Shown here one piece after another: positions 3,298 through 33,568 of a DNA stretch of 64,000 nucleotides. The stretch covers positions 6,845 to 70,844 of the forward strand of contig CAYYLQ010000013.1 of the NCBI GenBank assembly GCA_964472655.1, given 5' to 3'. How positions within the stretch are numbered: the stretch's first letter is position 1; each line of letters starts with the position of its first letter. Source of the stretch: an uncultured Nitrospirales bacterium. GTDB taxonomy: Bacteria > Nitrospirota > Nitrospiria > Nitrospirales > NS-4. Below the pieces are notes generated by a model, which saw only the letters and a list, made by a program, of their open reading frames with translations, was not told where the DNA came from and did not search any database. The position numbers were made by a program, and so were the translations under genes.

Positions 3298-4233
3298 TCA
3301 GCGTGAAGCTTCGACCGCCGCTTGGATGGGAGCGCGAAGGCCGTAGGCAATCAGTTCATGCGCGCGCCACCAGCGTTGGCGGGCATTGAGAAGGACGAGG
3401 AGGAGCTCTCTGTCGTCCCGCGTCACAACGGTGATCAAGCAGCGTCCGGCGCCACGCGTATAGCCGGTTTTCACGCCAATCACTCCATCCATGGTTCCCA
3501 GCAGGCGGTTGGTCGTCCGGGCGACATACGTCTTGCGTTGATCGGCGGTGCGGATGACCGCCGCCGGTTCTCGGACGATGGACGCGAAGGTTTCGTACCC
3601 CATAGCATATTCCGTCAGCAAAGCCAGCTCCTCGGCCGTGGAAAAGTGATTGGGCATGTCGAACCCGCAGGCATTCTGGAAATGGGTGCGGGTCAGCCCG
3701 ATGGCCGCGGCCTTCTCGTTCATCTTTGCAACAAACGATTCCTCATCCCCGCTCACGTGCTCCACCGCGGCAAGGCAAGCATCGTTGGCCGAACGAATCA
3801 GCATAGCCTCCAGAAGGCCCCGCAGCGGAAGCACCTGGCCTGGCTTCAAGTGGAGCTTGATCTTATGGGCAGCTGCCGCCTGCCGGCTTACCGTCACCTG
3901 ATCGTTCAGCGTGCCTTCCTCGAGAATCACGATGGCCGACATGATCTTGGTCAGGCTGGCGGGCGCCATGGACAGGTCGGCATTTTGCTCGAACAGAACT
4001 TCTCCTGTCCGTAGGTCTTTCAGCAGAATCCCTTCAGGCGGCAAAGACCGCCTCGGGGCCTTGCGCTTATAGATGGTCGGGGTTTTGACTTGCGCGGATT
4101 TTCCGTTGGACATGCGGTAGGTGTTCGCGGCGCGATCCGACGCGGCGCCCGAGGCATTGCCGGGAACGGGGAACAGGAGAAACGCCGCGCTGACGATCAG
4201 GCAAGCAACCTGACGGCAACGGGCGGCAGTCAT
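3298..4233 (-). CDS. D-alanyl-D-alanine carboxypeptidase (peptidase S11, PBP5-like)
   Basis: SxxK (ASLTK), SxN (SAN), KTG motifs; signal peptide. Confidence 0.9.
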   Translation of the reverse strand: MTAARCRQVACLIVSAAFLLFPVPGNASGAASDRAANTYRMSNGKSAQVKTPTIYKRKAPRRSLPPEGILLKDLRTGEVLFEQNADLSMAPASLTKIMSAIVILEEGTLNDQVTVSRQAAAAHKIKLHLKPGQVLPLRGLLEAMLIRSANDACLAAVEHVSGDEESFVAKMNEKAAAIGLTRTHFQNACGFDMPNHFSTAEELALLTEYAMGYETFASIVREPAAVIRTADQRKTYVARTTNRLLGTMDGVIGVKTGYTRGAGRCLITVVTRDDRELLLVLLNARQRWWRAHELIAYGLRAPIQAAVEASR

Positions 4234-4418
4234 GAAGGGATCGTAACTCTGAGGTTCAAATCCTTCACTCCCGCAGACAGCACTTGATGGAAGAACCGGA
4301 GCAAATCCGCGAGGTCCAGCCAGAATCCGCAGTTCAGACAGCGCGCGTACAGGCGGCGGCTATCCAGCGTGTAATGCCGCTCAAACATCATGCAGCCCTG
4401 GCATTTCAGACATGTCAT
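4230..4418 (-). CDS. small zinc-ribbon-like protein (CxxC...CxxC)
   Basis: MTCLKCQG...RCLNCG; overlaps start of the S11 gene. Confidence 0.65.
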   Translation of the reverse strand: MTCLKCQGCMMFERHYTLDSRRLYARCLNCGFWLDLADLLRFFHQVLSAGVKDLNLRVTIPS

Positions 4419-4478
4419 GGCCGACACTCTGGCATGGCGTCCAGCCGGAGTCAAGCGAAAAGCGGTGATGAGGCGCGC

Positions 4479-4661
4479 TCATTTGATTCGGTTCATGATG
4501 AGGGCGATGCAGCCGGCCAGCAACCCCCCGCCGGTGATGGTGAGCACGAAATTGATGGCGCTTTTGTCGCCGCTGATCAGATCCTGCACGCCTCCCTGCA
4601 CCATCAGCACCGCGAGCGTCATCGTCGCGCCGGTCAGGAACCACCAGAGGAATGTCTTCAC
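4479..4661 (-). CDS. small 2-TM membrane protein
   Basis: two hydrophobic helices, GAGG SD, good upstream promoter. Confidence 0.65.
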   Translation of the reverse strand: MKTFLWWFLTGATMTLAVLMVQGGVQDLISGDKSAINFVLTITGGGLLAGCIALIMNRIK

Positions 4662-4679
4662 ACGCGGCCTCGCTGCTCC

Positions 4680-4708
4680 AATCTAGCGGTGCGGCTCTGG
4701 ATTGTCAA
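4680..4708 (-). promoter_or_regulatory. sigma70-type promoter TTGACA-N17-TAGATT
   Basis: perfect -35, 17-nt spacer, upstream of 4661 start. Confidence 0.6.
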
Positions 4709-4724
4709 GCCTACGGAATTCGCC

Positions 4725-5885
4725 TCAATTAGAAGGCACCAGGTGTGAGCGGGGATCTTTGGCCAGGAAGACCGACACGGTGTTGCCCAAGTTGTTCGCG
4801 GTGACCAAGCCTGGCCGCGGGTCCTGCGGCCCGAACGAGACGGCGGTGACGGCGAACGGAGCCGAGCCGGTCCGGTAGCTGCGAGGCGGCTGCCAGAACG
4901 TGCCGTCTCCCTTGCCGAGCAGCACGGACAGATCGCTCGACATGTTATTGGCGACGGCGACATCCGTCTTGCCGTCTCCGTCGAAGTCCTGGGTCACGGT
5001 TGAGATCGGGCCGGCGTTCGCGCCGAAGGACGTCCCTTGCGTGAATGTCCCATCGCCCTTGCCGAAGAAGACGCTGATGTCGTCCCGTTCCCCGTTGACA
5101 ACGAGCAAATCCACGTGACGATCGCCGTTGAGGTCCAGAACCGACACGCTGAGCGGGCTATGACCGGTTTTGTAGGGGACCGGCGTCTGGAACGTGCCGT
5201 CTCCCTTTCCCAGGAACACCACGACGCTGTTGCTCATGGTACCACCGTGGGTGACTAAGAGGTCGGTCAGACCGTCCTCGTTGACGTCAGCGGCGGTGAC
5301 GGAGGTCGGGGTATCGCCGTATTCATAGACGCCCTTTTCTAGGAAGCTGCCGTCTCCGCGCCCGAGCAGGATGAGCAATTTGTCGTTCCGGAGAGCCACG
5401 GCGAGGTCCGATTTGCCGTCCCGGTTGAAGTCCCCCACGGCCAGGCTGACCGGCGATTTGATCGCCGAATAGCTGTCTCCTTGGGTAAAGCGGCCGGTTC
5501 CATCCCCTAAGAGAATGGTCACGCGATGGTTGCCGGCGGTCGCCACGGCCAGATCGAGCTTGCCGTCTCCGTTGAAGTCGTGGAGGACCACGGCGCGGGG
5601 CTGTTCCGGGATCCGCAGGGTCATTGCGTCCTTGAAATTGCCGTCCCCGTTGCCGAGCAGGATGCTCAGCGAGTCGCCGCTGATGTTCGTCGTGACCAGA
5701 TCGGCAAAGCGGTCGCCGTTCAGGTCGCCGGTGACGACGCTCGTCGGGTTCTTGCCGACCTCGATCGTCTTGTAGAGATAGAACAGATCGGGCGCTTGGT
5801 GGGATTCGCTTGGCGTACACGCGGTCCCCATCGCCAGAAGGAGCGCCGCCGAACACCAGCGGAGCGCGAAAGTGCAAATGGTCAT
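4725..5885 (-). CDS. FG-GAP/VCBS-repeat beta-propeller lipoprotein
   Basis: six clear D(L/F/V)NxDGxxDL-type repeats at about 55-aa spacing plus a degenerate seventh; lipobox-like GTAC. Confidence 0.88.
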   Translation of the reverse strand: MTICTFALRWCSAALLLAMGTACTPSESHQAPDLFYLYKTIEVGKNPTSVVTGDLNGDRFADLVTTNISGDSLSILLGNGDGNFKDAMTLRIPEQPRAVVLHDFNGDGKLDLAVATAGNHRVTILLGDGTGRFTQGDSYSAIKSPVSLAVGDFNRDGKSDLAVALRNDKLLILLGRGDGSFLEKGVYEYGDTPTSVTAADVNEDGLTDLLVTHGGTMSNSVVVFLGKGDGTFQTPVPYKTGHSPLSVSVLDLNGDRHVDLLVVNGERDDISVFFGKGDGTFTQGTSFGANAGPISTVTQDFDGDGKTDVAVANNMSSDLSVLLGKGDGTFWQPPRSYRTGSAPFAVTAVSFGPQDPRPGLVTANNLGNTVSVFLAKDPRSHLVPSN

Positions 5886-5974
5886 GACGGGAACATTGTA
5901 CGGCGTCGGCGAGGATGGCGCAACCCGGAGTTCCACGTCTTGCGCCGCCTATGCCCCTAGTATAGACTCGACTC

Positions 5975-7270
5975 ATGCCGATGTCCTATGTCAATGAGAT
6001 CGCGCAACACTCGGGGCGGGAAGCGACGGTGCGCGGGTGGCTCCGCCACAAGCGGGTCGGCGGGAAAATCGCGTTCTTGGTGGTGCGGGATGGGACGGGC
6101 GATATTCAAGCGGTTGTGAGCAAAGCGGCGGTCGGCGACGAGGCGTTTGCTCTGGCTGGCAAATTGACGCAGGAATCCTCCCTTCTTCTGACTGGGACCG
6201 TGCAAGCCGACGCGCGGGCGCTGGGGGGGTACGAGATGCACGTTTCCCGGCTGGAAGTGCTTCAGCTGGTTGAGGCGGAGTTCCCGATCCAGCCCAAAGA
6301 ACACGGGACCGGTTTCTTGATGGAGCACCGGCATCTCTGGCTCCGGTCTCACCGGCAAGAGGCCGTCCTGCGGATTCGCCACGAGATCATCCGGGCGTGC
6401 CGCAACTTCTTCGACGACCGCGGCTTCATTCTGGCCGACACGCCGATCTTCACGCCCAACGCTTGCGAGGGGACCACGACGCTGTTCGAAACCGATTATT
6501 TCGGCGAGAAAGCCTACCTGACCCAGAGCGGGCAGCTCTACAACGAAGCGACGGCGGCGGCTTTCGGCAAAGTCTATTGCTTCGGGCCCACGTTCCGGGC
6601 CGAGAAATCCAAAACCCGCCGCCATCTGATGGAATTTTGGATGGTAGAGCCGGAGGTCGCTTTTGCGGAGCTCGCCGATGTGATGGCGCTGGCCGAGGAA
6701 TTTCTCTGCCATATCGTGGCGAGGATATTGGAGCATCGCCGCGAGGATTTGAAGGCGTTGGAGCGCGACGTGAAGAAACTGGAGACCATCGTGCCTCCGT
6801 TCCCCCGGCTCACGTACGCCGAAGCAGTGGCGATTTTGCAGAAGAAGGGGAATCCGATCCGGCTCGGCGATGACTTCGGCGGCGATGAAGAGACGATTCT
6901 TTCGAATGAATTCGACCGTCCTGTGATCGTCCACCGCTATCCGACCGCGCTGAAGGCCTTTTACATGCAGAACGACCCGGAGAACCAAGGTCTCGCGCTG
7001 TGTATGGACGTGCTGGCGCCGGAAGGCTACGGCGAGATCATCGGGGGAGGCCAGCGCATCCATGAACGCGACAAGCTGCTGGCGCGTCTGAACGCGCACC
7101 ATCTTCCGGAAGACGCCTTTAAATGGTACCTGGATCTGCGCACGTTCGGATCGGTTCCGCACGCCGGCTTCGGCATGGGCGTCGAGCGGGCGGTGGCGTG
7201 GGTCTGTGGCCTAGAGCACGTCCGTGAAACGATCCCCTTTCCCCGCATGCTCTACAAGATCTACCCGTAG
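5975..7270 (+). CDS. asnS: asparagine--tRNA ligase
   Basis: OB-fold N-terminus, [41 protein letters not shown]. Confidence 0.95.
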
Positions 7271-7345
7271 CCAATTCGCCTCTCACAACTGGTCGTGGTA
7301 GGCTTCGTTACCAATCCCTAGGCAAGCCAGCTAGGATGCCATGAT

Positions 7346-7354
7346 TTATCCACA
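7346..7354 (+). promoter_or_regulatory. DnaA box (TTATCCACA)
   Basis: perfect consensus 9-mer upstream of the dcw promoter. Confidence 0.5.
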
Positions 7355-7408
7355 GGCTGACGCCTTAGGGACGATTTTCCTATCCAATCAATAAACCATA
7401 AATTTTTC

Positions 7409-7436
7409 TTGACAATGCCTTATAGGAAGGTATACT
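7409..7436 (+). promoter_or_regulatory. dcw (Pmra-like) promoter TTGACA-N16-TATACT
   Basis: near-consensus sigma70 boxes in AT-rich region upstream of rsmH. Confidence 0.7.
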
Positions 7437-7446
7437 TGCGCCAAAT

Positions 7447-7472
7447 AGTGGGCGAAAGTGGGAATTTGTGGT
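7447..7472 (+). promoter_or_regulatory. MraZ-type operator: three GTGG(G/T) direct repeats with 10-nt period
   Basis: GTGGG at 7448, GTGGG at 7458, GTGGT at 7468, just downstream of the -10. Confidence 0.7.
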
Positions 7473-7656
7473 TGAATAATATTGCAAGACAGTTAGGAAA
7501 AAATTAAGGCAAGGTTACATGGGTTCGTATCGATTACAGAGCCCGTCGACGATGCCGCACATGGCTGGAAGAAGTGATTCGTCTCTTCCGATCGGGTGCG
7601 GCATTTTCTTTCAGGGCCGATGACGATGGAGCCCCTTCGGGATTGCGGGCGAGAGC

Positions 7657-8556
7657 ATGCACAGACCGGTTATGCTCGAAGAGGTGCTGGCGTGGCTGAG
7701 GCCGCAGGCCGGAGGAATATATCTTGACGGGACGGTCGGGGCGGGAGGGCACAGCCAGGCCATCCTTGCGGCCAGCGGGCCGGATAGCAGGATCATCGGG
7801 TTGGATCGCGATGCGGCCGCGGTGGAAGCAGCTCGGGAGAAGCTCTCGGCCTTCGGCGATCGGGCGTTGATCATGCAGGCGGGGTACCGGGGTGCCGCGG
7901 GGGCCGTGCGGGACGTGACAGCGTGCGGGATTGATGGCGCGCTGCTCGATCTCGGCGTGTCCTCCATGCAGTTGGACCAGGCCGCACGGGGGTTCAGTTT
8001 TACGGCGGAGGGGCCGCTCGACATGAGGATGGACCAGCGGGAATCGCTCACTGCCGCCGATCTGGTCAACCGCTTGCCCGAACAGGAATTGACGCGAATC
8101 CTGTTCGAATATGGGGAGGAGCGGTACGCGAGGCGCATCGCCCGGGCGATTATCCGGAGGAGGGAGCGAGATCCCATTCTGACGACTATGGCGCTGGTCG
8201 ATGTGATCAGAGGAACGGTTCTGCCGTCCTACCTGCACGGCCGGCTCCACTTCGCCACGCGCACCTTTCAAGCCCTCCGGATCGCCACGAACCATGAACT
8301 CGAAGACCTCGGCTCATCGCTCCGGCTTGTGGCGGGGCTCCTGCGTCCCAGAGGCCGTTTCGTGGTGCTCTCGTTCCATTCATTGGAGGATCGCATCGTG
8401 AAGCACACGTTCCGGGCGTTGGCCAGCGGCGCGGATGCGGACTTCGCCGTTCTGACCAAACGTCCGCTCACGCCGTCCGAGAGAGAGTACGCGGAGAACC
8501 CGCGAGCCCGGAGCGCCAAGCTGCGCGTGCTCGAGCGCAGGGAGGACGCGGCATGA
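7657..8556 (+). CDS. rsmH: 16S rRNA m4C1402 methyltransferase
   Basis: HRPVML, DGTVGAGGHS, DLGVSSMQLD, FHSLEDRIVK, NPRARSAKLR. Confidence 0.95.
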   Translation: MHRPVMLEEVLAWLRPQAGGIYLDGTVGAGGHSQAILAASGPDSRIIGLDRDAAAVEAAREKLSAFGDRALIMQAGYRGAAGAVRDVTACGIDGALLDLGVSSMQLDQAARGFSFTAEGPLDMRMDQRESLTAADLVNRLPEQELTRILFEYGEERYARRIARAIIRRRERDPILTTMALVDVIRGTVLPSYLHGRLHFATRTFQALRIATNHELEDLGSSLRLVAGLLRPRGRFVVLSFHSLEDRIVKHTFRALASGADADFAVLTKRPLTPSEREYAENPRARSAKLRVLERREDAA

Positions 8557-8864
8557 AATACCTGGTCGGAACGGTTCTGTTGGCGCTGGCTCTATCGGCG
8601 GTGTGGGTGAAAGTGGATATTTATCGGACTGGGTACGCGATTGCGGACCTCCAGACCAAAAAGAAGCAGGCGCAGCAGGAGCAGAAAGCTCTCCTGTTGG
8701 AGCTTGCCAGGCTGACGTCTCCCGAACAGGTCGAGCGTGTCGCCGTCAGCCAGCTCGGCATGGTCCGGCCCCGGTACAATCAGGTGGTGTTGGTGAAGGG
8801 CGTTGCGCCGCCGGCCTCTGAAGCGCCGGCCAGCCGCATCGTCCGCGCGGTGCATACCAATTAG
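8553..8864 (+). CDS. ftsL: cell division protein FtsL
   Basis: TM plus coiled coil, LGM motif, position between rsmH and ftsI. Confidence 0.8.
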   Translation: MKYLVGTVLLALALSAVWVKVDIYRTGYAIADLQTKKKQAQQEQKALLLELARLTSPEQVERVAVSQLGMVRPRYNQVVLVKGVAPPASEAPASRIVRAVHTN

Positions 8865-8884
8865 GAAGCGGTAGCGGGGACTGC

Positions 8885-10603
8885 ATGGTGGAAGAAGAAG
8901 AAGCAAGACGAAGACGTCTGATCGTGGCCGCGGTCCTGATTGGGCTGGGGTTTTTCATCGTCATAGGCCGTCTGTTCCACCTTCAAGTGCTGCGTGCGGA
9001 GGAGTTCACGCAGCTGGCCGATCGCCAGCACCAGAAGACGCTCGCGGTAGAAGCGGGGCGTGGAGCCATCTACGATCGGAGCGGTAAAATCTTAGCGATC
9101 AATATGGATGTGCCATCGGTCTTCGGCGCTCCGAAATATGTGTCGGATCCGCGGACGACGGCCGTCCGGCTCAGCCGCGTTCTGAAAACCGATGTGCGGC
9201 AGCTGGAGTCCAGGCTCAAGAGCGAGCGAGACTTCGTCTGGCTGGCGCGCCGGCTTGAACCGGAGCGGGCGGAAGGACTGCAAGGGCTGTCCCTGGACGG
9301 TATCGGAGTGATCCCGGAGGGCCGCCGCTTCTATCCCAAGGGCACCATGCTGTCCCACGTCCTTGGGTTTGCGAACATCGACAATCAGGGCCAGGAAGGT
9401 CTGGAGCGGCGATACGACGCCCAGCTTCGCGGCGAGCGCGGCCATCTTGTTGTGGAACGGGACGCCTTCGGCGGTTCCGTCTTTCCGAAGGAACTGAACT
9501 ACGTCGCCCCGTCGCCGGGGAATGACCTCGTCCTCACGATAGACGAAGTCATCCAGTACGTCGCCGAACAGGAAATCGACGAAGTGGTCACGCGCACGCG
9601 GGCGGCCTCAGGGATCGCGATTGTGGTGGAGCCGAAGACCGGCGCGATCCTGGCCTTGGCGATGCGGCCGACGTTCAACCCGAACGCTCCCAAGGGAGAC
9701 GCGAACCTGTGGCGGAACCGCGCCGTCAGCGACTCCTACGAACCAGGCTCGACGTTCAAGCTCATCGCCGCCGCGGCCGCGCTCGAAGAAAAACTGGCTA
9801 CGCCGGACGAACTCATCTTCGGCGAGGACGGCCAGTTCGTAGTCGAGAACACCGTCGTGCATGACCACCACAAGAACGGCTGGATGACGTTTGCCCAGAT
9901 CATCCAGAAGTCCAGCAACATCGGCATGATCAAGGTGGCCCAGCGTCTGGGGCCGGACAAGCTCGCCCGGTACGTCAACGCCTTCGGGTTCGGGCAGAAG
10001 ACGGACGTGGATTTGAGCGGGGAACAGCGGGGGCTCACCAAGGAGCCGCAAGCCTGGGGCCGCCGCACGCTGGCCTCGATCGCCATGGGGCAGGAGATTG
10101 GCGTGACGCCGATGCAGTTGGTGATGGCGGTGTCGGCCATCGCGAACGGCGGGTCGCTCATGCGTCCCTTCGTGGTCTCGGAGGTCCGGACGCCCGCCGG
10201 AGAGACCGTCGCCCACGTCGAGCCGGTCGTCCGGCGCCGTTCCATCTCGGTGGAGACCGCCAGGATCATGACCGACATCCTGCGCGGCGCCGTATTGCCA
10301 GGCGGCACGGGCACGCTGGCGGCGGTGCCTGGATACGACGTGGCCGGCAAGACCGGCACCGCGCAGAAGACGGACCCGCTGACCGGCGGCTATTCGGCCA
10401 CGCGGACGGTCAGCTCGTTTGCGGGCTTTCTTCCGGCGGACGATCCGAAGCTGTGCATCCTGGTGATGGTGGATGAACCGCAAACCGCCCATTGGGGCGG
10501 GACCGTGGCGGCGCCCGTCTTCCGGCGGATCGCGGCTCAAGCGGTTCGGCATCTCGGCATTCTGCCGAAAGCGGAGGAGAACCAGATTCTTGCGGCGCGA
10601 TGA
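8885..10603 (+). CDS. ftsI: division transpeptidase PBP3
   Basis: RGAIYDR, EPGSTFK, SSN, KTGTAQK. Confidence 0.93.
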   Translation: MVEEEEARRRRLIVAAVLIGLGFFIVIGRLFHLQVLRAEEFTQLADRQHQKTLAVEAGRGAIYDRSGKILAINMDVPSVFGAPKYVSDPRTTAVRLSRVLKTDVRQLESRLKSERDFVWLARRLEPERAEGLQGLSLDGIGVIPEGRRFYPKGTMLSHVLGFANIDNQGQEGLERRYDAQLRGERGHLVVERDAFGGSVFPKELNYVAPSPGNDLVLTIDEVIQYVAEQEIDEVVTRTRAASGIAIVVEPKTGAILALAMRPTFNPNAPKGDANLWRNRAVSDSYEPGSTFKLIAAAAALEEKLATPDELIFGEDGQFVVENTVVHDHHKNGWMTFAQIIQKSSNIGMIKVAQRLGPDKLARYVNAFGFGQKTDVDLSGEQRGLTKEPQAWGRRTLASIAMGQEIGVTPMQLVMAVSAIANGGSLMRPFVVSEVRTPAGETVAHVEPVVRRRSISVETARIMTDILRGAVLPGGTGTLAAVPGYDVAGKTGTAQKTDPLTGGYSATRTVSSFAGFLPADDPKLCILVMVDEPQTAHWGGTVAAPVFRRIAAQAVRHLGILPKAEENQILAAR

Positions 10604-28217: not shown

Positions 28218-29337
28218 TCCGATCGCTCAGAAGATGCAGGAGGGGGTGGACCAGGGGGTTTTCCCCGGCGGGGTGCTGCTGGTGGAGCACAAGGGGCAGA
28301 CAGTCCACCACGCGGCGTACGGGTCCGCGTGCTTGCTGCCGGAGCGTGAGCCGGCGACCGTGGACACGATCTATGATCTGGCCTCTCTGACCAAGCCGAT
28401 TACAACCGTGACGGCCGTTGCGTTTCTTGCGGCCACCGCCAGGCTCGGCCTGGACGATCCGCTGGAGCGGTTCGTCCCTGAGCTGACGCAGGATGACTTG
28501 CGGCGGGCGACGATCCGCCATCTCCTGACGCATACGTCGGGCCTTCCCGCATGGCGTCCGCTGTATGAGCTGATTGCACCGGACGGCAAGCGGTTGAGAG
28601 AGAAGCCGTTGTCGGTCAGACGGGCCGCCGTCTACGACGCCATTCATCGCGAGCCCTTGGTCGAGACCGTGGGCCGCCGCTGCCTCTACAGCGATCTGGG
28701 GTTCATCCTGCTCGGCGAGATCGTGGAGCGGATCGTGAAACAGGAGTGGGCGGCCTTCTGCCACGGCGTGGTGTTTCCCGGGCTCGGCGCACGGGGCCTG
28801 TTCTACATGAGCGAAGACGGTCCCACGGGCGCTGTGTCAGTTGCGGGACGGCGGATCGCCGCGACGGAACAGGACGACTGGCGCGGGCGGATGATCCGGG
28901 GCGAGGTCCATGACGAGAACACGGCGGTGATGGGCGGCGTGTCCGCTCACGCCGGCCTGTTCGGGACGGCCGACGCGGTGACGCGGGCCGTGCGGCCGTG
29001 GCTGGCGGCGGTGCGGGGCGAGGCGTCGCCGGTTCCCGCGTCGTGGGCGAAGGCATTCGTGCGGAAACAGACGATCGATCCCGACGGCAGTTGGGCGCTG
29101 GGCTGGGATACGCCTTCCACGGGACCGGGAAGTACGCCGTCATCGTCGGGATCGTACTTCTCGCCGGCCTCGTTCGGGCACCTCGGCTACGCGGGGACGT
29201 CGGTGTGGATCGACCCAGACCGCGAGCTCATCGTCGTGCTGCTGACGAACCGTGTGCACCCGACGCGCAAGAACGACCGGATACGGGCCTTCCGCCCGGC
29301 CATCCACGACGCGATCTTTCAGACGGTGGTGAAGTAG
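28210..29337 (+). CDS. beta-lactamase-family serine hydrolase
   Basis: DLASLTK, LLTHTSG, YSDLG, VHDEN, GHLGYAG; no signal peptide. Confidence 0.88.
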   Translation: MADPIAQKMQEGVDQGVFPGGVLLVEHKGQTVHHAAYGSACLLPEREPATVDTIYDLASLTKPITTVTAVAFLAATARLGLDDPLERFVPELTQDDLRRATIRHLLTHTSGLPAWRPLYELIAPDGKRLREKPLSVRRAAVYDAIHREPLVETVGRRCLYSDLGFILLGEIVERIVKQEWAAFCHGVVFPGLGARGLFYMSEDGPTGAVSVAGRRIAATEQDDWRGRMIRGEVHDENTAVMGGVSAHAGLFGTADAVTRAVRPWLAAVRGEASPVPASWAKAFVRKQTIDPDGSWALGWDTPSTGPGSTPSSSGSYFSPASFGHLGYAGTSVWIDPDRELIVVLLTNRVHPTRKNDRIRAFRPAIHDAIFQTVVK

Positions 29338-29350
29338 GAACGAAGGTGGC

Positions 29351-29382
29351 GTGGGAGGGGCATCTGCGGGGCCCCCTTCCAC
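29351..29382. terminator. GC-rich hairpin between convergent genes
   Basis: GTGGGAGGGG...CCCCTTCCAC imperfect inverted repeat; no U-tract. Confidence 0.35.
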
Positions 29383-29702
29383 TACGATGGGTCGGGATAG
29401 TTCACCCAGGCTTCTTTTTCCGCGTAGTACTTCTTGCCGCGAAAATTCAACCTCGTCCGCAGGCGCGAGAACCCCAATTTCTGGAGCTGGCCGGCCAGGT
29501 GCCGAAGGGTTTCGGCGATAGTCGGGAGGGACGGGGCCTCGGCCGATACGGATTCGTATTGGACCTTGGCCGTATAGCCGGTCGCGGTGCGTGTGATCGG
29601 GACGATGCGGCTGAAAGAGCGTCCCGGCGGGTCATTGCCCTCGATCTGGTGCTTCTCGATGACGGTGTTTTTCTGGAAGATCAGCGGCGACGAGGCAGCC
29701 AT
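29382..29702 (-). CDS. hypothetical protein
   Basis: globular composition; TATAAT 7 nt upstream of ATG. Confidence 0.7.
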   Translation of the reverse strand: MAASSPLIFQKNTVIEKHQIEGNDPPGRSFSRIVPITRTATGYTAKVQYESVSAEAPSLPTIAETLRHLAGQLQKLGFSRLRTRLNFRGKKYYAEKEAWVNYPDPS

Positions 29703-29744
29703 GGGGCGGATTATACTGGCCGCCGAGAGGGAAAGCAAACGCCG

Positions 29745-31805
29745 TCACGCGACCATATTCGGAGCGGCCGGCTGGCCCAGGGGAAGTTGGGTGATCATCT
29801 CGGGAGGCACGGCGTAGAGATCGGTTTCCTCTCCAATGCCCTTGAGGGTCGCCGTCTTGCCCGGCAGATCGGGGGGCAGCACACCGCAGTTTTTGGCCAG
29901 CGCGTAGGCCCGGCGGGACAAGAGCAGTCCGCCGGGTTCGGCGGCGCTCTCCAGGCGCTGCGCCTTGTTCACCTCAGGCCCGATCACGGTGTAGTCCCAG
30001 AGATACTCGGTGCCCAGGTTTCCGACCGTCACGAAGCCGGTGTTGATGCCGATGCGGATCAGGTGGGCTTCCTGGCCTTGGCTGAGCCACCGCAGGTTGA
30101 GCTCGGTCATTTTTTTCTGCATGAGGAGGCCTGCATGCACGGCGTTGGCTGCGTGGCGTTGCACGCGGGCTTCCTCCACGTCTTCGCCTCCGCCTTCCGG
30201 TTCCGCATCGCCGAAAAACGCCATGATGCCGTCACCCATGTATTTGTCGAGCGTGCCCCCGTGCGTGCGGAGAATGACGGTCATGGCTGTCAGGTAGTCC
30301 CGCAGCACCCGCTGAATCTGTAGGGGATCGGAGCGCTTGCAGAAGGTCGAGAACCCGCGAATGTCCGCGAAGAAGATGGTGAGTTCCCGGGTGTGGCCAG
30401 CCAGCATGCCGGGAATGCGCCGGGGGTTCTCACGGATCATTTTGATGGTCTGGGGCGGGAGAAAGCCTCCGAGGACGGACTGAAAGCGCATCCGGTCCCG
30501 GTCCACAAGAAACGCGCGCGTCGTGAGCAGAAGGACGAGGCCGATGGTCATGGCCAGGATCGGCTGCACTGCCGGCAGGATGAGTCCCCCCTTGAAGGCT
30601 TCTTTCAGCGTGAACACGTAAGCGCCCATCATGGCGAGGTAGGTGGGGATGATCACCGATGGCCCGCCCGCGAGGGCCGCTCCCGTCAGGAGCACGACCG
30701 GAACGCCCAGGCTCAAGGCAGTCTCGGTCGGCGTTGCGTTCCGCAGGAACTGCCGCTGCAACAGCATGTTGAGCAGATGGAGGTGGATCTCGCTGGTGGG
30801 GAAATCGCCTTCGAACGGCATCGCCACGCGGTCGCCCGACCCCGTCGTGAGGTTGGAGACCACCACCGTTTTGTCTTTGAGGAGAGCGAGCGTCTTGGCC
30901 CGGCCCTTTTCCGACCGCATCTGACCAAGGAGCCAGCTGTAGGGATAGTGGACGAAGCGGGTCCCCCATGGGCCCGCATAGTTGATCCAGGCGCGCCCTT
31001 CGGCATCGATGGGGATGACGACGTCATCCCCTGCACGGGGCTTGAAGCGGATCTCCCGGCCGCGCTCGATCCGCATCGATGCGGGGTCGGCCTTCAGATA
31101 GCGCAATGCCGCAGCCAGGGACAACGACGGGACGAATCCCCCCTGCACGCGATAGATGAGTGGAACCCTTCGCAGAACTCCATCCCGATCGGACGTGCGC
31201 TGGATGTGTCCGAGACCGGCGGCTGTCTCGACCAGGCCTGGCAGGGGCAGCGTCAGCTCTCCGACCGCCGGGAGTTCCCCGAAGCCGCGGACGTCCGCCC
31301 GCAACAAGTGGCGGGGCGCGGGGAAGCGCGCGATGTCGGCGGGGTTCCCTTCCCGCACCGGTCTGAAAACGAGGGGATAGATGACGGAGCCGGCGCGACG
31401 GGTCGCGTCTATCAAGGCCCTATCCTCTTCCGGGCGGGAAGACGGGTGGTTGAACAACAGATCCATCATTACCGTTCGCGCCCCGGCTTTTTTGAGAAAT
31501 TCGATGACCTGCGCATGGACGCGGCGGTCCCAGGGCCAGCGGCCGAGCCCGTAGTCGCGCGCGGCGCGGTCGTCATAATCAATGGCCGCCAGAACATGAG
31601 ACTGGGGCTCCTCGGGATTCCGTGCCACGGGAATCAAGGGCCGGATTTGGAACCGCAGGTCCACCGTCCACAGCTCGATCGGCTCGAACAGCGCTGGCCA
31701 GGCCAGTTCAAGCAACAAGGGGAATGCGACGGCGACGAGGCTGGAGGCGGCGAGGACGGCGACATCTGTCCATCGCCAATCCCGGTGCAGGGAAAACATG
31801 CGCAT
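29745..31805 (-). CDS. CHASE2-domain class III adenylate/guanylate cyclase
   Basis: GRWPWDR and DRDGVLRRVPL (CHASE2); FADIRGFST, DKYMGDGIMAFFG, IGINTG, VNKAQRLE. Confidence 0.92.
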   Translation of the reverse strand: MRMFSLHRDWRWTDVAVLAASSLVAVAFPLLLELAWPALFEPIELWTVDLRFQIRPLIPVARNPEEPQSHVLAAIDYDDRAARDYGLGRWPWDRRVHAQVIEFLKKAGARTVMMDLLFNHPSSRPEEDRALIDATRRAGSVIYPLVFRPVREGNPADIARFPAPRHLLRADVRGFGELPAVGELTLPLPGLVETAAGLGHIQRTSDRDGVLRRVPLIYRVQGGFVPSLSLAAALRYLKADPASMRIERGREIRFKPRAGDDVVIPIDAEGRAWINYAGPWGTRFVHYPYSWLLGQMRSEKGRAKTLALLKDKTVVVSNLTTGSGDRVAMPFEGDFPTSEIHLHLLNMLLQRQFLRNATPTETALSLGVPVVLLTGAALAGGPSVIIPTYLAMMGAYVFTLKEAFKGGLILPAVQPILAMTIGLVLLLTTRAFLVDRDRMRFQSVLGGFLPPQTIKMIRENPRRIPGMLAGHTRELTIFFADIRGFSTFCKRSDPLQIQRVLRDYLTAMTVILRTHGGTLDKYMGDGIMAFFGDAEPEGGGEDVEEARVQRHAANAVHAGLLMQKKMTELNLRWLSQGQEAHLIRIGINTGFVTVGNLGTEYLWDYTVIGPEVNKAQRLESAAEPGGLLLSRRAYALAKNCGVLPPDLPGKTATLKGIGEETDLYAVPPEMITQLPLGQPAAPNMVA

Positions 31806-31816
31806 GGTCGGCGGCG

Positions 31817-32056
31817 CTAGCCTCCCGATCCTCCTGCGGTGGCCGGCGGTTTCGAGGGAAGCGGCGGGGAAGAGGGATCTTCCGGCGATTGCCGGGCGGG
31901 ACTGGGTTTTTTCTCTTGACGCTCCGGGTTCGCCGGTTGCCGGTTTTCAACGGGTGGCGATCCCGCTTTGCCGGAGGAGGCGCTGTTGCCGAACAACGCG
32001 CAGCCTGCGAGCTGAATCAGGGCGCCGCAGAGAAGAAAACAGAGGACTCGGTTCAG
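31817..32056 (-). CDS. small Pro-rich lipoprotein ending KPPATAGGSGG (CTG start; absent from ORF track)
   Basis: AAGGAGG SD at 32064-32070, 7 nt before CTG; LAGC lipobox; paralog of 32078..32383. Confidence 0.75.
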   Translation of the reverse strand: MNRVLCFLLCGALIQLAGCALFGNSASSGKAGSPPVENRQPANPERQEKKPSPARQSPEDPSSPPLPSKPPATAGGSGG

Positions 32057-32077
32057 AGGAAGGCCTCCTTAATGACG

Positions 32078-32383
32078 TTAGCCTCCCGAACCGCCGATGG
32101 CCGGTGGCTTTGCCGGGGTGGGCGGCTCCGATGTCTCATCAGTGGGCGTCCGGTTTGGGGCGGGCTTCTTGTTGCCCACCGTCTGGGGCTTCTTATCTTT
32201 CCGTTCAGGGGCAACTGATTGCCCGGTTTGGATGGAAGGCTCCTTGGAGGATTCCTTTTTGGACGATTCCTTTGAAGGGGCAGGATCGCCGGAAGTCCCG
32301 CCGGTGGCGCAGCTCGCCAGCAGCGGTAGCATGAGGCTTATCAACAGTATACGGGCTAAACGATGGAAGCAGAATGTTGTCAT
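32078..32383 (-). CDS. small Pro/Lys-rich lipoprotein ending KPPAIGGSGG
   Basis: GAGGGG SD, LASC lipobox, disordered body. Confidence 0.75.
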   Translation of the reverse strand: MTTFCFHRLARILLISLMLPLLASCATGGTSGDPAPSKESSKKESSKEPSIQTGQSVAPERKDKKPQTVGNKKPAPNRTPTDETSEPPTPAKPPAIGGSGG

Positions 32384-32491
32384 CGGCGCGGTCCCCTCGC
32401 CTTGGCGAAAGCTTATGATACGCCAGACCGAAAAGCAATACAACGTTTCCGACTGGCGCTTCCGCAGACAGGCCGACCGTTTTCTTGACAG

Positions 32492-33568
32492 TTACAGCAC
32501 CAGGTCCACGGCGGCCTGGCGCTTGGTGACCTTGTCCTCGGGGTTGTAGGTGGCGACGATCTCCTTCTTCATGTCCTTGGCGGAGACGACGATCCTGGTG
32601 CCCGCGTCCTCGTTGTGGATGTGGAGGAAGATTTCGTAATAGCCTTCCTTGTTGGTCTTGCCCTCATGGCTCTCGCGGCCTTCCTTCAACGGCTTGGCCA
32701 GGACCGGCAGGTCAGGGATCGGCTTTCCGGCCTTGTCGCGCACGTAGCCATACACAATGAAGCCATGATCCACCCTGCTTTTCACGAAGATCGGCTTCGG
32801 CGTTTCGACGGCCGGGTTCTTCAGCGTGGCCAGATAGGCCGCCAGGGCGGTGACCTCTTCGTCGGTCATCAGCTCCTTGTATTTGTCCGGCATCAGTCCC
32901 TTCTTGTGCTCTTTCTCAAAGCCGTCGGCGTAGAGGTAGGTCGGATCGAAGACCTTTTTCTTGACGTCGTCCTGCGTCAAAAGGTTGCCGATGTTGTCCA
33001 GGACCGGCCCGCGCTTCTTCACCGAACCCTTGCCCCCGATCTTATGGCAGTTGTAGCACTCGTGCAGGTCGTAGACTTCCATGCCGCGCGCGATGATGTC
33101 GCCGCTGCCGGCGGAGGTGGTCTGCGCGCCGGCTGCCCGCCCGCCTGCGGGCGCCGACGGCGCAAACTTCTCCAGTTTGGCCAAGAGGCCGCCGGTCTTG
33201 GCCTGCAGATCCTCGGATTTCTTGATCATCTCTTCCAGCTTGGCCCGGCGCGCTTCCGGTGTTTCCATCTTCGGCTTGACGATCTTGTCGATCTTGCCTT
33301 TTTCCACGGTCGGATCGTACTGAGGCAGAAAGGATGCGCCTCCGATGTAGACGGCCGAGATGACCGCATAAAAACCGAGCAGCGCCGCCAGGGCGCGCCA
33401 TCCGGTGAGGTTCGGAAAGGACGGAGCATCCAGCAGCAGAAAGACTACCAGGCCCAGCAGGACATAAAGCACGAACATCTTCTGGAAGATGGGCGGGAAG
33501 TGCATGGCTGCGGTTCCGAACCAGACGATCGGAATCAGGGCCGCGGCGATGATGAGCTTCCTGATCAT
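32492..33568 (-). CDS. membrane-anchored monoheme cytochrome c with C-terminal beta-sandwich
   Basis: three N-terminal TMs, CYNCH, GPVL..IG, candidate distal Met in GLMP. Confidence 0.85.
   Translation of the reverse strand: MIRKLIIAAALIPIVWFGTAAMHFPPIFQKMFVLYVLLGLVVFLLLDAPSFPNLTGWRALAALLGFYAVISAVYIGGASFLPQYDPTVEKGKIDKIVKPKMETPEARRAKLEEMIKKSEDLQAKTGGLLAKLEKFAPSAPAGGRAAGAQTTSAGSGDIIARGMEVYDLHECYNCHKIGGKGSVKKRGPVLDNIGNLLTQDDVKKKVFDPTYLYADGFEKEHKKGLMPDKYKELMTDEEVTALAAYLATLKNPAVETPKPIFVKSRVDHGFIVYGYVRDKAGKPIPDLPVLAKPLKEGRESHEGKTNKEGYYEIFLHIHNEDAGTRIVVSAKDMKKEIVATYNPEDKVTKRQAAVDLVL

Follow-up and report, generated by a model that had tools for sequence, protein, structure and literature searches.

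The window analysed here is the whole stretch of 64,000 nucleotides (nt) at positions 6,845 to 70,844 of contig CAYYLQ010000013.1, from the genome of an uncultured Nitrospirales bacterium (assembly GCA_964472655.1). On its minus strand two small tandem genes, designated ORF A and ORF B (ORF, open reading frame), lie directly upstream of a gene for a class III cyclase with a CHASE2 sensor domain. Judged from their sequences, both are real genes for small exported proteins with a predicted lipid anchor, and both end in versions of one short peptide, referred to below as the tail. The tail is conserved in relatives that are strictly paired with one clade of CHASE2 cyclases, and it could be a peptide that is presented to the adjoining sensor. 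The features at the locus are as follows.

32078..32383 (stop included), minus strand: ORF A, small lipoprotein of 101 amino acids (aa), ATG start, as translated.
32081..32125, minus strand: last 15 residues of ORF A, PPTPAKPPAIGGSGG, which are conserved and are proposed to be the functional element.
32064..32070, minus strand: Shine-Dalgarno sequence AAGGAGG of ORF B, read in the sequence, followed by a 7-nt spacer and then CTG at 32056-32054.
31817..32056 (stop included), minus strand: ORF B, a 79-aa paralogue of ORF A and likewise a small lipoprotein, predicted CTG start, as translated.
31820..31867, minus strand: C-terminal 16-mer of ORF B, PPLPSKPPATAGGSGG, a variant tail in which Thr-Ala replaces the canonical Ile/Val.
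29745..31805, minus strand: adenylate/guanylate cyclase of class III with a CHASE2 domain, 686 aa; its start lies 11 nt past the ORF B stop codon.
30690..31718, minus strand: predicted periplasmic CHASE2 domain of the cyclase, residues 30-372, from an AlphaFold2 model; the proposed receptor of the tail.

ORF A begins with a signal peptide, MTTFCFHRLARILLISLMLPLLAS-C, made of a basic n-region and a hydrophobic h-region, and its lipobox reads LLAS-C25 (LASC). The body that follows has a high content of Pro, Lys, Glu, Ser and Thr; the protein ends in the 15-mer directly before the stop codon. ORF B is translated as LNRVLCFLLCGALIQLAGC...PPLPSKPPATAGGSGG up to its stop codon, with (L)NRVLCFLLCGALIQLAG-C as its basic n-region and hydrophobic h-region and LAG-C19 (LAGC) as its lipobox. 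The general lipobox pattern is [LVI][ASTVI][GAS]C. A first-pass annotation of the window had described two tandem paralogous lipoproteins sharing a KPPA-x-GGSGG tail, and the coordinates, lipoboxes and translations all held. It had also pointed to an unlisted 79-aa ORF with AAGGAGG 7 nt before a CTG start, which was read in the sequence as described and is absent from the list of ORFs with usual start codons. The AAGGAGG begins 7 bases past the ORF A stop codon, and ATG, GTG or TTG starts give nothing but a 59-aa TTG version of ORF B, from which the signal peptide is missing; under the usual rules the full ORF B therefore stays hidden. The region 31700-32500 was identical in contigs from four sequencing runs of one study, from which this DNA possibly stems; the CTG is therefore not the slip of a single assembly. 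Besides these four DNA runs, only runs with small shares of the stretch were found, RNA-labelled ones among them with a share of 0.05. The placing of a cyclase start 11 nt downstream of ORF B was likewise borne out, the frame at 29745-31805(-) being assigned both CHASE2 (PF05226, 3.5e-45) and Guanylate_cyc (PF00211, 1.9e-20) by Pfam.

The small proteins could be placed in no described family. ORFs A and B matched none of the Pfam families and came nowhere near the cut-offs of NCBIfam, their database relatives were named 'hypothetical protein' or left unnamed in 7 out of 7 cases, and their best score in a protein atlas was 0.89, to unnamed clusters. The generic small lipoproteins LptM, Rz1 and VirB7 were considered as relatives and rejected, as they scored 0.77-0.78 in the atlas, below the useful threshold. 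When longer tail-bearing proteins were sought in a protein collection, none of the 290 word-sharing candidates reached E <= 10, which is weak evidence of absence. Within the whole 2.17-Mb genome, the tail occurs in 2 of 28,739 stop-to-stop frames of at least 40 aa, namely ORFs A and B; its conservation in relatives, described below, shows that the likeness of the two does not arise by chance. A read-through or fusion product of the two ORFs was also considered and rejected: two in-frame TAA codons lie between them in the window, a single TGA separates them in the related locus L002 and ORF B is in a different frame in locus L057, so no fusion is conserved.

The pairing of the tail with the cyclase was approached from both sides. 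Starting from the cyclase, 301 genomes sampled from the order were searched for orthologues of its CHASE2 domain at E <= 1e-60, and 14 of these genomes, the window's own included, were found to have one, at 55-86% identity. By family, they occurred in 9 of 20 genomes of the window's own family, in 4 of 160 of a second, and in none of the 115 and the 5 genomes of a third and a fourth. All 13 of the other orthologue genomes carry, immediately upstream of the cyclase, a small ORF with a signal peptide and a Cys that ends in K-P-[PA]-A-[IV]-G-G-S-G-[GA]. In the other direction, species-representative genomes and metagenome contigs were searched with a back-translated motif, K-P-P-A-x-G-G-[ST]-G-G-stop. 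The former gave 19 matches, comprising 12 family members, all in records labelled Nitrospirae, Nitrospiraceae or Nitrospirales, and 7 short frames without a lipobox in unrelated organisms, close to the number expected by chance. The latter gave 46 matches, of which 35 belonged to the family, 10 were chance frames and one was a protease that is discussed below. Among the resulting 47 family loci, five end at a contig edge and one (L067) precedes other genes; the 41 with a downstream frame of at least 150 aa encode 40 distinct proteins there, and CHASE2 was found in 40 out of 40.

In the order sample, the motif and the orthologous cyclase clade co-occur and are nowhere found apart. At 15 loci of paralogous CHASE2 cyclases, with about 25-33% identity, no such upstream ORF was present, which indicates that the lipoprotein is a partner of one narrow cyclase clade; a paralogue encoded in the window's own genome has a DUF4384 protein in the lipoprotein's place. 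The expectation of the first-pass annotation that the motif would be conserved in orthologues and linked to CHASE2 genes was supported from both directions. One member of the family, L096 (G018:C169), ends in GGSGA rather than GGSGG. Another locus, L076:2394-2633, has a lipobox and a tail but no usable start codon ahead of its signal peptide.

In an alignment of 36 sequences, the Cys (C25 of ORF A) and the signal peptide were invariant in 36 out of 36, and the relatives share the same N-terminal layout, with 18-36 residues ahead of the Cys. The tail has the consensus PPxPxKPPA[I/V]GGSGG, and together with the lipid-bearing Cys it is the sole conserved part of these proteins; in ORF A numbering the invariant residues are C25, P87, P88, P90, K92, P93, P94, A95, G97, G98, G100 and G101. 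The bodies in between range from 76 to 183 aa, and short repeats such as KAQPPEE and HPAATEE-I/M-K have been gained and lost among relatives. The body therefore looks spacer-like and is probably an unfolded linker, judging from its Pro-, Lys-, Glu-, Ser- and Thr-rich composition, its variable length with repeat turnover and a confidence of 47 on the predicted local distance difference test (pLDDT) for the partner chain in the complex runs described below.

Several observations argue that the peptide, rather than the nucleotide sequence, is what selection preserves in the tail. ORFs A and B encode the same tail residues with different codons (AAG/AAA, CCA/CCG, GGC/GGA, GGT/GGA), and among 24 distinct nucleotide tails the third position varies in every codon while the amino acids stay constant, with Lys encoded by AAA or AAG, Pro by four codons, Ala by three, Gly by two to four and Ser by TCG, TCA or TCT. 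As the search pattern fixed nine of the tail residues, part of this amino acid constancy is due to ascertainment. However, the positions that the pattern left free are still conserved (Pro at -15 in 23 of 24 tails, and Pro at -14, Pro at -12 and Ile/Val at -6 in 24 of 24), and the loci that were collected through the cyclase, independently of the motif, have the same tail. In L032 the tail is present and GGAGG is found nowhere. The tail is equally kept in ORF A, L003/L049 and L034, where the next start codon is 46-274 nt away, and it persists both where the cyclase starts 4 nt within the small ORF and where it starts at least 90 nt downstream. From the synonymous variation and the absence of GGAGG in L032, selection is read as acting on the tail peptide and not on a ribosome-binding site, as the first-pass annotation had suggested from codon differences between the two copies.

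That annotation had added the caveat that the terminal Gly codons also form a GGAGG resembling a Shine-Dalgarno sequence. This stands for a single genus (L004-L009, equivalent to L037, L041, L043, L044, L046 and L047), in which the lipoprotein stop codon overlaps the cyclase start codon (ATGA or TAATG) and the first GGAGGA of the tail Gly codons lies 8 nt before the cyclase ATG. In this genus, the Gly codons double as the ribosome-binding site of the cyclase, and the overlap indicates co-translation of the two genes. As the sole cause of tail conservation, though, the GGAGG has to be rejected.

For ORF B, the unusual start codon raised the question of whether it is a gene at all. In the three genus-level loci available (the window, L002/L033 and L057) the frame is intact in 3 out of 3, with all insertions and deletions in frame and with the lipobox and a variant tail kept, the latter being KPPATTGGTGG in L002 and KPPATAGGSGG in L057. 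GGAGG precedes the start by 5-7 nt in all three (5 nt in L002 and L057). In L057 a TTG immediately precedes the CTG; in the window and in L002 the CTG stands alone. The ratio of nonsynonymous to synonymous differences per site (pN/pS) came to 0.36-0.69 in ORF B, at pS of 0.23-0.41, as against 0.48-0.58 in ORF A, so ORF B evolves much like ORF A, which is undoubtedly coding. On these grounds the CTG-started frame behaves like a gene, as had been proposed at first pass, and we regard ORF B as probably real, with translation predicted to start at the CTG.

A tandem arrangement is also found outside the genus. A second lineage (L032, L036 = L105, L062, L087 and L092) independently carries a tandem pair whose frames overlap; here the canonical tail is on the downstream copy, and the upstream one ends in LPPLPAKPPPMGGSGG (KPPPMGGSGG). 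In L092 all that is left of the upstream copy is a 47-aa frame without a signal peptide. With pairs present in two lineages, one canonical and one variant copy are a recurring arrangement.

The predicted periplasmic domain of the cyclase was modelled with AlphaFold2 at a mean pLDDT of 94.2 and a predicted template-modelling score of 0.93, and has a mixed alpha/beta fold. A Foldseek search of this model against the PDB returned nothing at E <= 0.001. With VIA-align, the best match among 48,161 chains was the C-terminal domain of a Mur ligase (Z 5.7, root-mean-square deviation 3.0 over 109 residues), which was rejected since scores in this range are common for unrelated folds. In a search of 1.84 billion cluster representatives the domain found 10,086 matches at E <= 0.001, one of which was full-length with more than 50% identity. 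At thirteen positions the clade has a residue that never varies within it but is rare among paralogues, eleven of them being Y77, A81, A82, R95, W273, W291, L319, A328, E339, M347 and P369. Known modules that bind proline-rich peptides use aromatic side chains, and Y77, W273 and W291 would be natural candidates for holding such a peptide here.

A complex of the CHASE2 domain (residues 30-372) with residues 60-101 of ORF A was predicted in three runs with a median score of 0.38, as opposed to 0.00 for the best of 3 controls; the runs share at least 53% of their contacts, and the pLDDT of the partner was at least 46. In calibration, 116 of 157 solved complexes passed the same mark as this pair, as did 2 of 215 mismatched pairs, and scores of 0.60 or below comprised 18 of the 157 solved complexes together with both of the mismatches that passed. 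The first-pass annotation had supposed that the periplasmic CHASE2 domain reads the tail. The preference for the tail over the controls agrees with that supposition, although a weak pass of this kind does not demonstrate docking, and the modelled contact should be taken as a hint of direct binding.

For a lipid-anchored partner, the necessary machinery appears to be in place. The genome encodes LspA (PF01252, 1.6e-41), Lgt (PF01790, 2.1e-78) and LolA (PF03548, 3.9e-21), all above cut-offs, which makes lipidation and sorting possible. By the '+2 rule' of E. coli, a lipoprotein is sorted to the outer membrane when the residue after the Cys is not Asp. The mechanism that we consider the likeliest is as follows. 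The lipid anchor would fix the protein to a membrane facing the periplasm; with Ala at residue +2, the rule points to the outer membrane. The variable linker would serve as a flexible tether. The C-terminal peptide would be the working end, docking on the periplasmic CHASE2 domain and thereby setting the activity of the cytoplasmic cyclase, upwards or downwards. Changes in the reach of the tail or in its occupancy of the sensor could then alter the output of cyclic AMP (cAMP) or cyclic GMP, and candidate influences are the geometry of the envelope, cleavage of the exposed linker and competition from the paralogue with the variant tail. A tethered peptide presented to CHASE2 is suggested by the fact that the anchor and the tail are the only conserved parts of the small proteins and that, apart from these proteins, nothing in the module but CHASE2 lies outside the cytoplasm. 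That the lipoproteins are dedicated tethered-peptide partners which bind the adjoining sensor is, in our estimate, about evenly balanced between true and false.

Several points weigh against this proposal. By the calibration of the tool, a docking score of this size misleads in most cases unless binding was already likely on other grounds, and the near invariance of the tail leaves no co-variation with the sensor to look for. The lipobox departs from the canonical pattern at position -2 in some relatives (LPGC, VEGC). At L067:603-881 (+), the sole family locus that no cyclase follows, the ORF has a duplicated tail core inside (…TTPPAIGGSEEPPPPTKPPAIGGSGG), there is no cyclase within ~1.9 kb, and the gene for a PiT-like transporter starts ~400 nt downstream. 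The same tail, as PPSPVKPPAFGGSGG, also terminates an unrelated protein, a trypsin-like (Trypsin_2) lipoprotein of 306 aa at L059:2601-3521 (-). The next gene, at L059:3-2390 (-), is for a WD40 lipoprotein whose length exceeds 796 aa, and no CHASE2 gene was found in the 5.2 kb around the protease, the contig ending ~700 nt further on. The tail may thus be a movable module that is read by something other than CHASE2, even if it was present in only 1 of 68 homologues of the protease, namely L059 itself.

These loci are a ground for supposing that the lipoproteins are co-regulated with the cyclase but act independently, having their own role in the envelope, with the tail bound by some other factor of the periplasm, such as a component of the peptidoglycan or of the outer membrane, and the operon shared for expression. 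The weakness of the binding prediction would fit such a role, and the invariant tail Lys is a conceivable cross-linking site by analogy with Braun's lipoprotein, in which a C-terminal Lys follows a helical coiled-coil body. A Braun-type peptidoglycan-linked lipoprotein was itself rejected, the Lys here being 10 residues from the end and the body Pro-rich and variable in length. An independent role is difficult to reconcile with the linkage in 13 of 13 genomes and 40 of 40 proteins, with the motif and the cyclase clade occurring only together in the order sample and with the lack of a second conserved neighbour (the adjoining cytochrome c gene and 118-aa ORF, described below, are confined to the genus), and the tail on the protease is a singleton; we consider it unlikely. 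A little less likely still is a gated or released signal, in which a periplasmic protease cuts the linker and CHASE2 registers the freed or lost C-terminal peptide, much as in the regulated proteolysis of periplasmic sensor inhibitors or with C-terminal peptide pheromones. This would be a refinement of the tethered-partner proposal, and it has in its favour that the linkers are long, variable, repeat-rich and probably unfolded, and that the tail is also found on a protease next to a WD40 lipoprotein. The signal of a Sinorhizobium meliloti CHASE2 cyclase is, in the passages of PMC7529298 that describe it, peptidic and protease-sensitive. However, no protease gene is conserved in the module, a diffusible signal needs no lipid anchor, and the tail is invariant across genera and families, whereas pheromones diversify.

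Two further explanations concern whether the small ORFs act as proteins at all. If they were leader frames that control cyclase translation by coupling, the tail would amount to nucleotide signals such as a ribosome-binding site or an RNA structure, and the genus with overlapping stop and start codons and GGAGGA 8 nt before the ATG is what such control would look like. The codon data largely refute this: every tail codon varies synonymously, L032 lacks GGAGG, the tail persists at 46-274 nt from the next start codon, and neither the signal peptide nor the Cys varies among 36 aligned sequences. We regard a leader function as very improbable. For ORF B alone, it could be argued that it is a decaying duplicate whose start codon is gone and whose expression has ceased, leaving ORF A as the only functional copy. 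In the window and L002 no ATG, GTG or TTG gives a signal peptide, model bacteria initiate poorly at CTG, and a pN/pS of 0.65-0.69 against two relatives is not a mark of strong constraint. Yet the pN/pS of ORF A is hardly better as a mark of constraint (0.48-0.58), and a decaying frame would not be expected to stay open through in-frame insertions and deletions at all three loci at the pS observed, with lipobox, tail and a strong, properly spaced Shine-Dalgarno sequence kept and, in L057, a TTG adjoining the CTG. The second lineage, moreover, also keeps a canonical and a variant copy. Decay of ORF B is thus improbable in our view. The suggestion of the first-pass annotation that the tail might be a di-glycine tag found nothing specific in its favour; this, a sorting signal and a thiazole/oxazole-type precursor were all rejected, as no processing, sorting, conjugation or cyclodehydratase gene is conserved beside the module.

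If the tethered-partner proposal is correct, it can be taken further, to a picture that we think rather doubtful but worth stating. The tail would be an encoded, lipid-tethered ligand of CHASE2, anchored in the outer membrane by a tether that spans the periplasm, so that the cyclase would gauge envelope geometry or periplasmic proteolysis. The canonical and variant copies (KPPAI with KPPATA here, KPPAI with KPPPM in the second lineage) would act as competing agonist and antagonist that tune the set point, and the tail on the L059 protease would be a portable 'address' for CHASE2-type receptors.

There is precedent for an envelope partner of a CHASE2 cyclase in the work on NsrA of S. meliloti, whose CHASE2 cyclases CyaD1, CyaD2 and CyaK are described, in passages of PMC7529298 and PMC13001267, as responding to a peptidic or protein signal and as requiring the outer-membrane-associated NsrA. 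As in the module proposed here, a separate envelope protein is needed there by a class III cyclase that sits in the inner membrane and has its CHASE2 domain in the periplasm (PMC7529298, PMC13001267). CyaD1 without its CHASE2 domain is reported in a passage of PMC5498481 to make cAMP constitutively, and from such passages the signal is peptidic or protein in nature and CHASE2 seems to restrain the cyclase (PMC7529298, PMC5498481). NsrA differs in being large and outer-membrane-associated, with a beta-barrel portion and a signal from outside, as far as the relevant passages of PMC7529298 describe it. In the window, the partner is a self-encoded, lipid-anchored chain of 55-160 residues, taken to be unfolded, and neither a beta-barrel nor a FecR partner gene was found beside the cyclase: the small ORFs have no such domain, and the neighbours are the cytochrome c and the 118-aa ORF.

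Lipoproteins that cross the periplasm to modulate an inner-membrane partner are represented by the pairs NlpE-CpxA, RcsF-IgaA, QseG-QseE and LpoB-PBP1b, and LpoB, a tethered activator of PBP1b, has a long unfolded linker. The small ORFs show no sequence likeness to these proteins, as they hit no family, and NlpE, RcsF, QseG and LpoB work through folded domains. In the window module, the proposed working end is a free C-terminal 15-mer and the target is a CHASE2 cyclase. Likewise, Firmicutes pheromone precursors such as Phr and PapR are small, exported and encoded beside the receptor gene, and have a conserved active C-terminal end. Unlike the lipoproteins here, they are not lipid-anchored, act on cytoplasmic receptors after import and diversify between strains, while the tail is almost invariant across families.

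CHASE2 sensors that are encoded with exported partners are also known from the Burkholderia 'BiofilmReg' operon, which in passages of PMC5192318 comprises a CHASE2 histidine kinase with exported partners, one of them a predicted lipoprotein (DUF4136). The likeness lies in the co-encoding of sensor and exported partners (PMC5192318). The differences are that the partners are LysM-FecR and DUF4136 proteins, that the output is a kinase, and that those passages describe no conserved C-terminal peptide (PMC5192318). A further parallel exists in the window's own genome, where G000:C9:58500-67500 (L112) encodes a DUF4384 protein (391 aa, 4084-5259), a CHASE2 cyclase (741 aa, 5323-7548) and a second CHASE2 protein (7398-8999), all on the plus strand. 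Here too, the gene of an exported partner lies directly upstream of the cyclase; unlike ORFs A and B, this partner of ~390 aa is folded, has a Pfam domain and lacks the tail motif. In genus-level relatives, the DUF4384 partner also has a conserved terminal peptide of its own (…IDIIGVPGRKKGEKP-x-ETMGTMGR…).

The wider surroundings of the module are not conserved beyond the genus. The gene directly upstream of ORF A, at window 32492-33568 (-), encodes a membrane-anchored cytochrome c of 358 aa whose C-terminal part weakly resembles CarboxypepD_reg. At window 29382-29738 (-), starting 6 nt past the cyclase stop codon, is an ORF of 118 aa that matches no family; it has 83-91% identity to its counterparts, which are in same-genus loci only. 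A wider operon that would include the upstream cytochrome c, a downstream carotenoid-synthesis-like gene and the 118-aa ORF was rejected, as these are kept only in three same-genus loci. A scan of 29200-32700 gave one promoter-like and three terminator-like sites, none above shuffled expectation, and no terminator- or promoter-like site on the minus strand between the three genes.

CHASE2 is a very large family of extracytoplasmic sensors that is found on cyclases, kinases, diguanylate cyclases and caspases, and no lipoprotein of this kind is described in the matching passages of the papers that full-text searches on CHASE2 returned. It was already known that lipoproteins can modulate membrane sensors, and passages of PMC5192318 describe CHASE2 sensors with co-encoded exported partners. 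What is new here is a family of predicted lipoproteins that has no profile and only 'hypothetical' relatives, its minimal build, in which nothing but a free C-terminal 15-mer would be conserved for function, the strict link to a single CHASE2 clade and the recurrence of canonical and variant pairs. ORF B would in addition be a conserved gene that is missed by standard start-codon rules.

As a lipoprotein co-sensor, this would be an extreme case, since the working part would be a short linear motif and not a folded domain. The ligands of CHASE2 are described as unknown in the relevant passages of PMC10581220 and PMC5192318, and the tail provides a concrete candidate for what a CHASE2 sensor reads. 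If it is indeed an encoded ligand of CHASE2, it would be the first defined ligand of this sensor family, and a synthetic tail could be used directly in binding, co-crystallisation and activity assays, which would make CHASE2 recognition testable with two small components.

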